Source: Amoeboradix gromovi X-113 (Eukaryota; Fungi; Sanchytriomycota). From it: a stretch of 16,773 bases of DNA. Positions 1 through 16,773 of this stretch are shown here, piece by piece. The DNA is taken from positions 1-16,773 of the forward strand of contig JADGIF010000153.1 of the NCBI GenBank assembly GCA_018985225.1, written 5' to 3'. The notes under the pieces were generated by a model. The model worked only from the letters and a program-made list of their open reading frames with translations. It was not told the DNA's origin and made no database searches. The position numbers were made by a program, and so were the translations under genes. Positions within the stretch are counted from its first letter, which is position 1. Each line of letters begins with the position of its first letter.

Positions 1-180
1 CCAAGTTGTCTACACTTGAGAAGTGTGGGGTTTGAAATCTTCATGATTTTCGAATTCTTCACATTTAACGTAGGCGAATACCAAGGGCATAAATGCATTA
101 GAAACACTCGGGGTCTCCAAATGAAAATTTCAACATTTTTTGTCAAGCAGGATCCATGCTTAGTTGTATTTTACGGTGGT

Positions 181-6212: not shown

Positions 6213-6344
6213 TTTATATGAAACTTATCTTCGCTGTTTGAAAGACGCAAACAGGAAACATTAAATTTAACCCTAGAGAAGTGAAATAAATTTGTCTTAC
6301 AGGTGAAAGATTAAAAATTAACTTAATGAAATTCCGTGTGACAC
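6213..6344. promoter_or_regulatory. Putative bidirectional promoter (132 bp) between the divergent DUF4200 and GPN1 genes
   Basis: The two ATGs point away from each other across a short AT-rich spacer. Inferred from geometry only. Confidence 0.5.
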
Positions 6345-7190
6345 ATGAATTCGCAACAAAAAGAGGACACTCACGTAATTATAGTCATCGGAATGGCAGC
6401 AGCAGGCAAGTCGGCTACTGTCAAAGCGTTAAAGCGCTTAAATCCCTACACCATAAATTTAGATCCTGCAGTTCTCGACACTCCATACACGTGTAATATC
6501 GACATTAGAGATACAATTGATTACATGAAGTTAATGGAGGACTATTCATTGGGACCCAACGGTGCCATAATGACCTCTTTAAATTTGCTTTGCACTAAAT
6601 TTCATGACATTATTGCTCTCATTGATAAAAGAAATCCAAAATATGTTGTAGTTGACACTCCTGGTCAGATTGAGGCATTTACATGGTCAGCTAGTGGTCA
6701 AATTATTATGGAAACATTGGCTTCTAAGTTTCCTGTATCAATAGTGTATGTCGTGGACAGTGTTAAATGTGATAATCCCGTTTCTTTCATGTCAAATTTA
6801 GTTTATGCATGTTCTATCATGTACAAATCTCAGCTGCCTTTTGTTTTGTTTTTTAATAAATCCGACCAAACAGATACTTCAAGGCTAATAAGTTGGATGC
6901 GGGATTATGACAATTTTATGGAACACTTAATGAAATATGAAAACGACGGTAACTATGCTACAGATTTAGCAAGAAGCATGGCACTAATGCTTGAAGATTT
7001 TTATAAGGTGCTAAACGTTGCCTGCGGAAGTGCTTTGAATAATGACCTTGATAATTTGCTGGATAAGTTGGAGGAATCTAAAAATTCATTTGAAGAATAC
7101 AGAAAGATGAGAATACAGGCTGATAAGCATAGAAAAGAAAGAAAGACACATGAATTAAGTGTTAAATTAGAAGGATTGGATCTGAAATAA
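6345..7190 (+). CDS. GPN1: GPN-loop GTPase 1 (GPN1/XAB1/Npa3)
   Basis: GMAAAGKS P-loop, NLDPAV, IDIRDT, LGPNGAIMTSLNL, DTPGQIEAFTWSASG, FMSNLVYACSIMYK, NKSD. Confidence 0.93.
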   Translation: MNSQQKEDTHVIIVIGMAAAGKSATVKALKRLNPYTINLDPAVLDTPYTCNIDIRDTIDYMKLMEDYSLGPNGAIMTSLNLLCTKFHDIIALIDKRNPKYVVVDTPGQIEAFTWSASGQIIMETLASKFPVSIVYVVDSVKCDNPVSFMSNLVYACSIMYKSQLPFVLFFNKSDQTDTSRLISWMRDYDNFMEHLMKYENDGNYATDLARSMALMLEDFYKVLNVACGSALNNDLDNLLDKLEESKNSFEEYRKMRIQADKHRKERKTHELSVKLEGLDLK

Positions 7191-7323: not shown

Positions 7324-7460
7324 GATTTGTATGTCTCCAGTCTCCTCGTTAAAAGTCCAGATTTCCGAGAAAATCGAGAATTTCCACAGAGAAACTAGCA
7401 ATGCTAGATGCTCTGTTACAGCGATTGCTCACGCTTTCACTACCTTGAGGCGGGATTGAA
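7324..7460 (-). ncRNA. Putative Fanzor omegaRNA A (scaffold about 7460-7344, guide from 7343 downward)
   Basis: Lies directly 3' of RuvC-III. Minus strand reads CCGCCTC (7453-7447); hairpin AGCG/CGCT (7435-7420); long hairpin ACAGAG..CTAGCA-T-TGCTAG..CTCTGT (7416-7386); hairpin 7384-7360; then GACTTTTAACGAGG. Same layout as the copy at 8727-8837. Confidence 0.65.
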
Positions 7461-8045
7461 TAAGGATGCAGATACTTGATGTATATGTTCCTTGCTGCCA
7501 TATGGTCTCTATCTATTTCCAAATGACACTGTACAGGTGTAAGTTTCTAAATTGGCTTTCTTTAGAGTACCGCACCTTGTATATGTCTGACTAGTAAATG
7601 ATTCATTACATTCGACCATCGTCTTTCCTCTTTGCTTACACTTGAACTTCAAGCGTTCTTTGAATGCGTAATGGGACATTGTAGCCAAGTTTCTTGCGAC
7701 CTTGCTCGACAAACTACTTATCATCTGGCTCGTATTGAACGATGGCAAGTAAATAAGATCGTACGTCTTTGTCAGGTAATCACATATCTTCATATGACAA
7801 TCCTCTCTAAGATTCTTTACACGCTGTATCAGTCTATACATGACCTTTTTATACTTGCGCTTCTTTTTTGATCGTGTTATTTTTGATTGTACTTTGTCGA
7901 TTGCGTATAAATACTTTTTGATATGATGGAATTCATGTGAGCAAAACTCCTAGATATTTTCACTGTCGTATCCCGTCAAAAACTTTCGTACACCTGGATC
8001 TAATGCAATCACTTTTTCAATTATCTTTGGTTCTTCACATTTAAA
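7349..8045 (-). pseudogene. Fanzor2/TnpB RuvC nuclease pseudogene A (5'-truncated, one in-frame TAG, one frameshift)
   Basis: ORFs 7950..8366 and 7509..7841 share a frame, separated only by TAG 7952-7950: VIALDPGVRKFLTGYDSENI*EFCSHEFHHIKKYLYAIDKVQSKITRSKKKRKYKKVMYRLIQRVKNLREDCHMKICDYLTKTYDLIYLPSFNTSQM...SHYAFKERL...VECNESFTSQTYTRCG...YTCT. A frameshift near 7529 then gives CHLEIDRDHMAARNI (RuvC-III), running to TAA at 7351-7349. Confidence 0.9.
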
Positions 8046-8240
8046 CAAGTCTGTAAGAGCATACAAGTTCACATTGTGGTTCTCAATGAAGGCGACAAAG
8101 ATAAGGGAGAAGAGCTCAAAGACGACCTCTTCGCGGTCTGCACTTGCTTCATTGCGCAAGCACATGGAAGAAAAAGTCCTGGAAAAAGATGCGAATGCCA
8201 AGGAAGAAATTCTGATGGAGAAAAAGCTCAAGAGAGTTAA
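8040..8240 (+). pseudogene. tnpA: C-terminal fragment of an IS607-type serine recombinase (TnpA)
   Basis: A frame not in the ORF track reads FKQVCKSIQVHIVVLNEGDKDKGEELKDDLFAVCTCFIAQAHGRKSPGK...*, matching the IS607 TnpA tail pattern IVVLN...EELxxDLhxIhxxFxxRLYGxRS. It overlaps the start of the downstream Fanzor, as in IS607. The N-terminal HTH and catalytic Ser are missing. Confidence 0.72.
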
Positions 8241-8722
8241 GCGCGAAGAGGCAGATCGAAAAGGGATCTTGAAGATACGTGGTCCTGAATTTTTTAGGCC
8301 AGCTCTGGAAGGTGAGAACGCTACTGGTATCACACTCCAGAAGTTAAGAAACCTTTCAAGATGCAAGACGCTATATGCCTTGAGGATAAGCCATGGGTGT
8401 TAATACACCGGAAATGATATGCGACGAAGCCCTGACTGAGTTGGTAGTCAAGCACAAGGAACAACTCTTCAAAAGTAGGAAGGCTACATACCGCCAGGAA
8501 GAATATTCCAGAGGTAGCCGGTACTATCATTATTTCAAAGACAAGGTTGGGAAAGTCTTACCTCCATAGATGTTCAAGGGTGCGGAAACAAACCATCCAA
8601 GAAGATCAAGGCTATTGCTCTAAATCCAGGTGTCCGGAAGTCTCTTGCACGATATAATGGGGAAGGTGATCGAGATCGATGATAGAGACCTGAATGTCAT
8701 AACAAAGGTGCTTGTTAAGACA
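8164..8722 (+). pseudogene. Fanzor2/TnpB pseudogene B (multiple frameshifts and deletions; RuvC-II/III deleted)
   Basis: Across frames: K/R-rich N-terminus MEEKVLEK...KKLKRVKR...ILKIR, PWV-NTPEMICDEAL, LFKSRK, IIISKTRLGKSYL, KIKAIALNPGVRKSLARYNG (8611-8660; D-to-N form of IALDPGVRKFLTGYD), GKVIEI. Confidence 0.8.
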
Positions 8723-8951: not shown

Positions 8952-10562
8952 TTACTTTTCAATCACTCTTTTAATATCCTCATATCCTATCAGGACCACA
9001 TCTTGTATTTTTTCATTCAACAAATAGGTATTTCTTGCCAATTCTAAACTATCATCAGTCACCTTTTGGGTCGTGATGAAATAAAATTTACCCAATGTGT
9101 AGTCTGTGTATTTTTTTTTGATTTTCTGCCAATTTCGAGCAGCCTTGGTTAAAATATCCTTCATATTTCTTGCTTGCTTATTTGTCATCGCCGCAATGTT
9201 ATCATCATCAATTTTGTGCTCTAAAGGTATCTTTCCATTATATCCATCAGTCCATCTTTTTTTTTTATCACCACATTTTATTTGAATAATGTGAATTTTC
9301 CTTTCGTTGACAACAAATCCATCCATGTCGTTATCTTCGGCACCCGTAATTTGGTAAACGCCATCAACTAGTTCTGTACCTTCTTGTTCACGATACTCGC
9401 CTATTTGTAAATCGTCAGAGTGCTTTAAGATTACAGATTCCATATAGTGACCCAGTGAAGTAAATTTCTTTTCAGTCAACAAATTAAAGACCAAGAAATC
9501 CAAATAATCACTTTTCAATTTAAAATAATTCACTATATACGTGATTGTAAATGGCAACAGCAATTGTAATTCCTGTATACCGGAAGAATGAAAAAAGTAC
9601 GACTCTTGATATTCAGAAATGCATGCGTAAAACTCGCCTGGGAGAGACTGGCTAGTAAACAATTCTGCCCATTTTAGAGTTATAATCGATAACGGATTGC
9701 TATCGTCATATTTCAGATAAAACATGGTTAAAATTGAAGCCAAGGTATCATTTTTATTGATATAAGTCCCAAAGTCTTTTTCGGAAATACACTCATCATT
9801 AACCGAATTCATGTATCTGGGAATGCCACCTGTTTTCCAAAGAATATCAGCAGCAGCACCTAAAGCGACTCCGCAATAATTTGCTATTTGGTTTGCCTCT
9901 CTCAATGGATAAACGTATTTCCTTGTATATACTGTGTTGTTCAAATTGGCGTAATCAGGTTTATCACTAAATGCATATTTGTCCAGTTTGTATGAGCTAC
10001 TGGATATGAACCCCAGCACGGTTGTAGATTTGCCAATGACATACAACTGGTAGATGATTTCTTGGCTAGATGTTTTGTCGTTTAACTCATAAACATGATG
10101 AATTTCATCTGCAAAGAAAAACAGTCTGAAGCCTTGAGCTCTAAGAGCTGCAAACCAGTCAAGTTTCTGATCATAGTCATCGTGTTTTAAATTGCAGCCT
10201 TTTTTCTCAAGCCAATTCTGTATTTTATCAAACGGTGAAGTTAATTTTGACAATGGCTGAGACATATCCGAGTAGAAACTCTGTGCATTTAATTTCTTTT
10301 CCTCAAAATATATGTTGAGCAGTGAATTCATATTTCTCATCAACCATGTCTTGCCTGTACCTCTAGCACCAACAATAGCATAGTTTGGTTTTTGATTTTC
10401 CTGATTTAAATTTAGCATTTTTTGAACACCATCAGAGATATCTTTAACTAGGGCTCTCACATCTTTTGTAGAGAAAAGAGGCTTTGAGCCCAGTGTTTCC
10501 CATTTAGAAACTATATGATCATTGACAGCTGAAATATGCAAATTAGATAAATCTTCTTCCAT
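8952..10562 (-). CDS. Crinkler-like (CR-type) P-loop NTPase fused to a PD-(D/E)xK restriction-endonuclease-like domain
   Basis: Walker A IVGARGTGKT, Walker B LFFFADEIH, helical-domain TGGIPRYM. C-terminal GHYMESVI ... DMDGFVV ... IHIIQIKCG ... FYFITT, an E..D..QxK REase pattern. Confidence 0.7.
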   Translation of the reverse strand: MEEDLSNLHISAVNDHIVSKWETLGSKPLFSTKDVRALVKDISDGVQKMLNLNQENQKPNYAIVGARGTGKTWLMRNMNSLLNIYFEEKKLNAQSFYSDMSQPLSKLTSPFDKIQNWLEKKGCNLKHDDYDQKLDWFAALRAQGFRLFFFADEIHHVYELNDKTSSQEIIYQLYVIGKSTTVLGFISSSSYKLDKYAFSDKPDYANLNNTVYTRKYVYPLREANQIANYCGVALGAAADILWKTGGIPRYMNSVNDECISEKDFGTYINKNDTLASILTMFYLKYDDSNPLSIITLKWAELFTSQSLPGEFYACISEYQESYFFHSSGIQELQLLLPFTITYIVNYFKLKSDYLDFLVFNLLTEKKFTSLGHYMESVILKHSDDLQIGEYREQEGTELVDGVYQITGAEDNDMDGFVVNERKIHIIQIKCGDKKKRWTDGYNGKIPLEHKIDDDNIAAMTNKQARNMKDILTKAARNWQKIKKKYTDYTLGKFYFITTQKVTDDSLELARNTYLLNEKIQDVVLIGYEDIKRVIEK

Positions 10563-10642
10563 TTTACGTGTTTGATAAAAAGTTTCAAAATACAGAGCAA
10601 ATTGGATTCACAGAGCTGTCGAGAATTTGGAATTAAAGAGCA

Positions 10643-16087: not shown

Positions 16088-16773
16088 CAGCCAAATTCTT
16101 ATTTGTTTAAAACGAAGCAGAATTAATAAATTCTAATGTAATTGACAAACTGGTCTCATTATCTGGATATTTCTGAACGCAGTACTGCTCTTAATATACT
16201 AAACCTGCACACAATTTTAAATCGTCTGAACAGTGTTGGAGTGCAACTATTGCCTTCCAAGGCTCAAAAACTCTGTTTATGGGATGTTACCAACTTGTAC
16301 ACTTTGTCATGACCGAAGTAGTTTACATGAGCCGCAGCAGATATCCAACTTTTGGATTTATTTTATCAATACGAGTTCTAAAAGATGTACAATGGATATC
16401 ATGGAAGTAGATATTGTCAAACACATACTTTTGCAGAAAAGCAGAGAATCATTGAAACAAGAATCACCTGGATTCAGGCGTGAACAAATTTCCTGTGGGA
16501 TATAAAAATGTGATCCTCTTCGAGTTTTGCTTGCATGAGTTTAATTAAATAAGATATAATCCAAAAGAGAAATCTTTTTGGATAGGAAAAAAGGATATCT
16601 ATAAAGTTATGAATCATATGAAAGATCGAACAGAGGATTAACATATGGGACATCAAATATAAAAACTGGACCAACATTCTGTAACAACTTGGAACATTAT
16701 TTCAGCTTTATTAATTTTATGGATTTAAGAGGCGAGTGGACATGCAGCTAGTTGCGGAGTTGACGAGTATAAA

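Follow-up and report, generated by a model that had tools for sequence, protein, structure and literature searches.

How the two overlapping genes of a bacterial-type insertion sequence, a serine-recombinase gene (tnpA) followed by a nuclease gene, might be translated in a eukaryotic cell is the question raised by a short locus in the fungus Amoeboradix gromovi X-113. The window is the whole stretch of DNA that was analysed, 16,773 nt of contig JADGIF010000153.1 (assembly GCA_018985225.1, forward strand), and all coordinates refer to it. The reading considered probable is that the locus holds a dead copy of an IS607-Fanzor2 element in which the DNA of tnpA also encodes, in the +1 frame, part of the Fanzor2 N-terminal domain, and that its ancestor likely used an mRNA with twin start codons.

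Eukaryotic IS607 elements with Fanzor2 (IS607EU) have the same arrangement, a serine-recombinase tnpA and then Fanzor2, mostly as fragments or pseudogenes; according to the available parts of PMC3627910, PMC3673617 and PMC13565253, such elements occur in amoebae, ascomycetes, a basidiomycete, stramenopiles and giant viruses. Eukaryotic IS607-Fanzor2 elements, those of fungi included, are thus already published, and the present remnant is a new fossil of a known kind.

The tnpA remnant, the decayed Fanzor and their flanks

The features on which the analysis draws are as follows.

6342..7190, + strand: host GPN-loop GTPase gene, left flank (PF03029, E 8e-65; EukProt)
7342..8037, − strand: Fanzor A, the 3' half of a second Fanzor2 element (right end 7342-7345)
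8037..8038, no strand: head-to-head junction of two 5'-truncated elements, placed from a 99%-identical Fanzor A copy
8040..8240, + strand: 5'-truncated IS607 tnpA remnant; last strand of the catalytic core, helix E and tail, without the HTH domain or the catalytic Ser
8041..8240, + strand: partial Fanzor2 N-terminal domain (WFS motif) and start of the core, encoded by tnpA DNA in the +1 frame
8164..8166, + strand: ATG formed from TnpA His-Gly codons, near where canonical TnpBs begin
8355..8485, + strand: REC-like fragment of Fanzor B (PWV / NTPEMICDEAL), two frames, weak match
8499..8590, + strand: WED/linker fragment of Fanzor B, another frame (E about 1e-4 to 8e-4; 3 frames searched)
8590..8660, + strand: RuvC-I of Fanzor B (E 3e-5 to 2e-3; 3 frames searched)
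8657..8722, + strand: last recognisable piece of Fanzor B, after RuvC-I, read by eye
8952..10607, − strand: host AAA-ATPase gene, right flank, on the same contig as the tnpA remnant

An earlier note on this DNA, made from the letters alone, had taken an unlisted frame beginning IVVLNE at 8040-8240 for the tail of an IS607 TnpA. The peptide was recovered from the + strand frame 8004-8240, which includes FKQVCKSIQVHIVVLNE ... EELKDDLFAVCTCFIAQAHGRKS and ends at 8240, and the assignment was upheld by profile searches. With the 66 residues from 8040, the best PDB match was 3ILX (E 2.8e-5), all four PDB matches at E<=10 being IS607-type TnpAs, and NCBIfam NF033518 was matched at E 9.4e-6 over profile positions 138-184 of 187, with a score under the whole-protein cut-off as expected of a fragment. 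A Pfam search with the 78-aa peptide returned no match at E<=1. Among 1.84 billion representatives, all three matches at E<=0.001 were TnpA-like, one of them (P0002) being an Amoeboradix gromovi protein held in EukProt. The helix E region places the remnant among IS607-type serine recombinases, of which it covers approximately the last quarter; the 5' three quarters of tnpA, with the HTH domain and catalytic Ser, were found nowhere in the window. Both of these features are present in the nearest relatives (P0001, P0003 and L083) and in P0054, a full-length IS607 TnpA of A. gromovi from EukProt, P0002 being partial. Both Amoeboradix sequences are known here from proteins, the record of P0054 naming a 13,987-nt contig.

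A Fanzor nuclease lies downstream of tnpA on the same strand and overlaps it, a feature of IS607 that is present here. Its pieces (element B) occur in the expected order with at least three changes of frame by profile matches and five by eye. The REC, WED and RuvC-I motifs previously reported from this stretch as frameshifted were in part recovered: the WED/linker and RuvC-I do occur in changing frames, but the REC match is weak (E 0.02-0.05 for the part from 8402, 3 frames searched), the part before 8402 having been read by eye. The RuvC-I motif reads ALNPG and not DPG, Asn replacing the catalytic Asp at codon 8623-8625, and past ~8722 no RuvC-II, zinc finger, RuvC-III or right end of Fanzor B was found, nor the right-end motif seen at 7342 and 64-76. 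Since only the last quarter of tnpA is left, the Fanzor2 frame is broken, the catalytic Asp has been replaced and the C-terminus is missing, the copy is a dead, 5'- and 3'-truncated IS607-Fanzor2 element. Its homologous RuvC-I motif with Asn for Asp would accordingly be that of a decayed, rather than an active, member of the Fanzor2 group. Descent from a once-autonomous IS607-Fanzor2 element, as the earlier note proposed, is supported, and the remnant sits among host genes at single-copy depth.

The same note had described the stretch as locally GC-richer than the host genes. Its count of 31/60 at 8101-8160 is correct, but the stretch stands out only modestly: a count of 31 or more occurs in 2.6% of the 60-mers in the window, spread over 13 different 500-nt blocks, and the 44% GC of 8040-8722 (window, 37%) is reached by 3.7% of 683-nt windows. 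As a marker of foreign origin GC is weak.

The flanking genes (CDC20-like, GPN GTPase and chromodomain) are eukaryotic, and two window proteins have EukProt entries. In run X1, a single 6,276-nt contig spanning 8008-14283 at a depth of 46 (neighbours 38-50) joins the remnant to the AAA-ATPase and chromodomain genes. That run is possibly the source sample itself and so not independent of the window's assembly. None of the X1 contigs listed crosses the Fanzor A repeat from GPN1 to the remnant, and the 6,276-nt contig has 30 letters only to the left of the 8037/8038 junction, so the link to GPN1 rests on the window's assembly. These same facts are what would favour a mis-join to the host of tnpA-Fanzor DNA from a co-sequenced giant virus or bacterium; the contig that ties the remnant to two neighbouring genes, a degree of decay befitting a host-resident fossil, and the existence of related TnpAs in Amoeboradix all speak for residence in the host, and a mis-join is regarded as the least probable of the readings considered.

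The AAA-ATPase gene at 8952-10607 (− strand; Pfam AAA_22, E 7e-6) also has a possible C-terminal nuclease-like region, and presumably resembles the Crinkler-type ATPase-nuclease genes.

The reading frame overprinted on tnpA

According to the earlier note, the Fanzor begins at the ATG at 8164 and overlaps tnpA by 77 nt in the prokaryotic manner. The position of the ATG and the length of 8164-8240 are both arithmetically right, but the short overlap is contradicted by the sequence upstream: no stop interrupts the +1 frame between 7954 and 8403, so that the overlap spans the entire remnant; in intact relatives it takes in most of tnpA. Moreover, the +1 peptide from 8041 matches a profile of the relatives' N-terminal extension built without the window (E 8e-10). 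When the TnpA peptide was re-encoded synonymously 10,000 times, an ATG arose at the place of 8164 in 6,445 cases, and 60/142 relatives have one at the equivalent place. Given the open frame upstream and the origin of this ATG as a by-product of His-Gly codons, 8164 is probably an internal Met rather than the start used by this family, the true overlap extending far beyond 77 nt. A start at 8164 does have points in its favour: the ATG is there, close to where canonical TnpBs begin; homologues from Moorena are 403-409 aa long in RefSeq as against 564 aa from other sources in the same cluster; and in the canonical IS607s of this set the overlap with tnpB is absent or does not exceed about 100 nt. 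Nevertheless, the frame upstream of 8164 is not only open but bears a conserved motif of the N-terminal domain, the ATG is explicable from the TnpA codons, and the upstream segment belongs to a Fanzor2 structure already solved (PMC11832414, available part). A prokaryote-style unit with its Fanzor start at 8164 is therefore held to be very unlikely.

Within the window copy, the stop-free +1 frame over the remnant has a probability of 0.007-0.06 under synonymous re-encoding, varying with the codon table, and the WFS motif was retained by chance in 25/10,000 re-encodings. Because 17 of 93 stop-free re-encodings score as well as the real +1 peptide, residue-level selection is only weakly indicated in this copy. 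Codon counts under the conserved Trp were partly circular and were left out of the evidence.

Relatives were gathered by means of an 18-sequence TnpA alignment, 80 loci from each of three collections (viral, metagenomic and prokaryotic), a viral scan with a 4-sequence alignment having given no confirmed relative. A Fanzor or TnpB frame +1 to tnpA and overlapping it by at least 300 nt was present in 54/63 viral, 66/70 metagenomic and 42/54 prokaryotic loci; a broken tnpA or the lack of a downstream nuclease frame had removed 17, 10 and 26 of each 80, respectively. Over the resolvase core of ~120 codons, the +1 frame was stop-free in 97 of 110 distinct elements, about 9 stops being expected in each from synonymous re-encoding with the codon usage of each locus, and the +2 frame was stop-free in 0/110. 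For the 90 DPG-type elements, 21 stops were seen in the +1 frame as against about 800 expected, and 81 elements were stop-free as against 0.1 expected, whereas two canonical-type controls contained +1 stops as expected (13 vs 12.8 and 9 vs 11.4). The +1 product of the relatives carries conserved LWLP and SWF motifs.

The locus is thus taken to carry a selected dual-coding layout, though the copy is dead. That the long overlap was a eukaryotic invention is ruled out, as bacterial pro-Fanzors share it; it is older than eukaryotes and did not arise for eukaryotic translation. What looks tied to the virus and eukaryote side is only the lengthening of the overlap as far as the beginning of tnpA.

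The identity of the overprinted product was approached through ApmFz2, the Fanzor2 of Acanthamoeba polyphaga mimivirus (PDB 9B0L; PMC11832414, PMC10530073), which was the best structural and profile match. In the available parts of these two papers, its N-terminal domain comprises residues 53-130 behind a disordered NLS region; by cryo-EM it completes the RuvC and touches both RNA and DNA, and it is described as unique among available TnpB structures (PMC11832414). With profiles that included the downstream core, the SWF motif aligned to ApmFz2 from residue 76 onwards; when the profile was restricted to the overlap, no ApmFz2 match was obtained in the PDB at E<=10, the sequence match needing its downstream anchor. 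An AlphaFold model of the Fanzor of the relative L083, in which tnpA covers about the first 238 Fanzor codons, had a mean pLDDT of 74 with residues 1-113 below 50, the model having used an alignment. Residues 113-576 of this model aligned to ApmFz2 53-518 (Z 26.3, rmsd 5.3, 408 aligned), and TnpB structures aligned to it only from about residue 202. An N-terminal domain ahead of the TnpB core is therefore partial in the window and matches 9B0L in the relatives, and in the predicted structure of the L083 Fanzor the overprinted segment matches the ApmFz2 N-terminal domain. The locus differs from ApmFz2 in that the homologous segment is here encoded inside tnpA and the window copy is catalytically dead; a term look-up in the available part of PMC11832414 for TnpA or an overlap gave 0 hits. 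Two close relatives known as proteins only, P0158 and P0165, keep the motifs behind a short N-terminus, which suggests that the domain can outlive tnpA.

These findings would trace the N-terminal domain of Fanzor2 to an overprint on tnpA, and many TnpB and Fanzor2 annotations, those of editing-tool candidates among them, may start 100-200 codons too late. In the Moorena TnpB cluster, that of P0212, the shorter RefSeq entries described above suggest that an overprinted N-terminus is frequently lost in annotation.

Start-codon spacing and the translation of both proteins

How an overlapping two-gene unit is expressed in a eukaryote had been left as a question by the earlier note. For the dead window copy it is moot; for its relatives, closely spaced start codons suggest an answer. 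In long-overlap elements, to which the count was restricted (15 of the 28 analysable giant-virus-MAG loci), the first +1 ATG lay within 30 nt of the tnpA ATG in 12/15 giant-virus-MAG elements, with a median of 7 nt, in 14/34 other viral and 34/55 metagenomic loci, and in 3/41 prokaryotic loci, with a median of 85 nt; TnpA start codons of the relatives were chosen by a script rule, and 7 loci without a usable ATG were dropped. The offsets of up to 30 nt were 4, 7 or 10 nt in 53 of 63 cases, and the two nearest intact relatives had offsets of 4 nt (L081) and 7 nt (L083). No other ATG intervened between the two starts in 14/15 giant-virus-MAG elements, compared with 16/41 prokaryotic elements, and a Shine-Dalgarno-like word preceded tnpA in 0/15 of the giant-virus-MAG elements.

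Close ATGs were present in 5/57 members of a prokaryote-rich clade and absent in 7/27 members of the window's clade, 20/27 window-clade members with data having ATGs within 16 nt. The raw contrast in spacing between viruses and prokaryotes (Fisher P 3e-7) is inflated by kinship, the tree providing 1 independent pair, which cannot reach significance.

Published measurements bear on such spacings. In the available parts of the sources, close out-of-frame AUGs compete for scanning ribosomes in yeast up to about 17 nt (PMC9743702), and close AUGs drive the dicistronic mRNAs of TYMV and influenza B, where, for TYMV and for NB/NA, two out-of-frame AUGs within about 15 nt head long overlapping ORFs (PMC6294492), as in the elements described here. 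In those systems output was measured in RNA-virus mRNAs or reporters (PMC6294492, PMC9743702), whereas the IS607-Fanzor2 mechanism is inferred from sequence only. Given the offsets of 4, 7 and 10 nt and the published competition between close AUGs, a division of initiation between twin AUGs is favoured; it would fit the spacing in giant-virus elements, but with one independent contrast.

An intact ancestor would accordingly have made both proteins from one mRNA, ribosomes choosing between two start codons separated by only a few bases. The window copy, whose 5' end is gone, would once have borne the same twin ATGs there, and eukaryotic scanning ribosomes would be split between them as has been measured for other mRNAs. 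TnpA would have moved the element, and Fanzor2 together with the right-end RNA may have guarded or restored it. The 8037/8038 junction probably goes back to a deletion that took away the left parts of two neighbouring elements of divergent orientation and so brought them together.

Alternatively, the Fanzor2 of intact eukaryotic copies might be made by another route, such as re-initiation, a frameshift, or a transcript of its own that begins within tnpA or a short way upstream; the remnant and its dual coding would then stand as described, and close ATGs would be a habit of the clade with no part in scanning. It is consistent with such a route that the long overlap is common to bacteria, where scanning is not applicable, that there is only the one independent contrast, and that in some giant-virus elements the first +1 ATG lies 160-289 nt in; according to the available part of PMC6294492, moreover, close AUGs need not act by plain leaky scanning. 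The piling of offsets at 4, 7 and 10 nt, inside the published range of AUG competition, is less easily explained in that way, as are the scarcity of intervening ATGs and of Shine-Dalgarno-like words in the giant-virus-MAG set (vide supra). Another route is accordingly judged unlikely, and twin-AUG initiation is retained as the favoured account, one that offers a testable answer to how a two-gene bacterial insertion sequence is translated in eukaryotes.

Neither the long +1 overprint, nor its link to the Fanzor2 N-terminal domain, nor twin AUGs were found in the literature searched or by term look-ups. The available parts of the IS607EU accounts (PMC3627910, PMC3673617, PMC13565253) describe no +1 overprint across most of tnpA and no twin start codons, and no overprint or twin AUGs appeared in the portions consulted of these three papers or of PMC10530073, PMC11832414 and PMC10691335, or in PMC10711439 (main text and one supplement) and its preprint. 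An overlap of the two ORFs has been noted for prokaryotic IS607 (PMC6188088, available part). Among the papers listed for Amoeboradix and transposition, none concerns IS607 as far as titles and the beginnings of abstracts go.

Element A, origin and repeated sequences

Fanzor A, on the opposite strand, retains the DPG motif, the alternative Glu and the RD motif, with one stop, one frameshift and the loss of the first zinc-finger Cys. The alternative RuvC-II Glu, six residues before the zinc finger, is invariant in 90 relatives, the region being missing from element B. Element A is 62% identical to the metagenomic L081. Elements A and B are only 73% alike over 41 nt at RuvC-I and are therefore different copies. 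IS607 elements have defined left and right ends, without terminal inverted repeats or target duplication. Element A ends sharply on the right, at 7342-7345, with a sequence similar to the right ends of L081 and L083. In this right end, where a structured guide RNA would be expected of a Fanzor2, the folding is nothing unusual (z -0.53) and there was no Rfam match, element B having no right end. No left end was identified, and both ends of element B are lost. The junction could be placed at 8037/8038 from a 99%-identical copy of A in run X1 that departs from the window after 8037 and beyond it is still Fanzor sequence. With the 5' part of tnpA found nowhere else in the window, the idea that element A simply inserted into tnpA is unsupported.

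Affiliation was assessed with quick trees of 141 nuclease cores and of 52 chosen TnpAs. Element A pairs with L081 (SH-aLRT 94) and L083 in a 38-row clade (SH-aLRT 94) that contains 13 giant-virus-MAG rows and no prokaryote row. The tnpA remnant, which fills 24% of the columns, is grouped with the metagenomic L083 and with Amoeboradix P0002 (92), within a starred set of 8 rows that has no giant-virus-MAG row. The flanks of L083 hold dense unnamed ORFs and a PCNA-like gene with viral and eukaryotic look-alikes, and this locus may be that of a giant virus. Entry by way of a giant virus, raised as possible in the earlier note, is compatible with these data, such a donor being putative: the clade of element A has giant-virus-MAG rows, and the tnpA remnant lies apart from them. 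A Fanzor2/pro-Fanzor grouping, nearer to 9B0L than to Fanzor1, holds for element A and its relatives, element B being too fragmentary to place. The pro-Fanzors, mostly cyanobacterial IS607 TnpBs (PMC10711439, available part), share the DPG motif, the alternative Glu and an IS607 TnpA partner and, from the present analysis, the long +1 overlap; they differ in forming a clade separate from Fanzor A and in their first +1 ATG, at a median of 85 nt into tnpA as against 7 nt in giant-virus elements.

In run X1 the right end of element A reaches a summed depth of about 45,900 as against about 50 in flanking bins, depth not being equal to copy number. At least 54 contigs leave the window at 7342 and 22 at 7345, and their flanks agree only at 0.41-0.43. 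A large in-genome amplification of Fanzor2 element A is possible, and the many flanks at one right end suggest movement, the mobilising enzyme and any dependence on TnpA being putative. The same run contains a second tnpA copy, on a contig of 3,403 nt and depth 85 whose positions 1273-1340 match 8109-8176 (68 nt, 81% identity). To either side of this copy at least 255 letters are unmatched, so that a whole element could fit, and its 30-letter loose ends translate as TnpA in one frame and, in the +1 frame, as the Fanzor extension. By way of comparison, the available part of PMC3673617 records 1-22 IS607EU sequences per genome and no evidence of eukaryotic transposition; with this the many insertions of one right end and the second tnpA copy in X1 contrast. 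The locus points to a high-copy, possibly active family in the same genome. A nuclear genome with a recently active IS607-Fanzor2 family of hundreds of copies, possibly one of them intact and autonomous, with transposase and nuclease expressed from one twin-AUG mRNA and with the NLS-bearing extension and N-terminal domain of Fanzor2 overprinted on tnpA, is a tentative further reading to which rather less than an even chance is given; if true, the element could be tuned toward moving or toward homing through the spacing of its AUGs, which would also help to explain why IS607 in particular crossed into eukaryotes.

Several further sequences in the window were recorded. A second very high-depth repeat end lies at about 16640 (16640-16773, + strand), its summed depth being near that of the right end of element A. 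It showed no clear match to the relatives' left ends and may mark the left end of the family or belong to some other element. At 1-76 (+ strand) lies a right-end-like sequence that stops at 76 and shares its terminal motif with 7342 (2 matches, 0 in 200 shuffles); it falls within the open frame 1-1329, which precedes a RING-finger gene. An exact 14-nt repeat between this sequence (55-68) and the junction (8031-8044) is at chance level (mean 1.5 in 100 simulations). The stretch 16468-16545 (+ strand), 54% identical over 26 aa to the L081 Fanzor just after RuvC-I (E 4e-4), is probably another small Fanzor2 fragment. The repeated right end of element A itself extends over 7342-7840 (− strand), the flanks past 7342 being AT-rich and unlike one another. 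Finally, the segment 11766-12340 is moderately repeated in X1, where several contigs are <90% alike.
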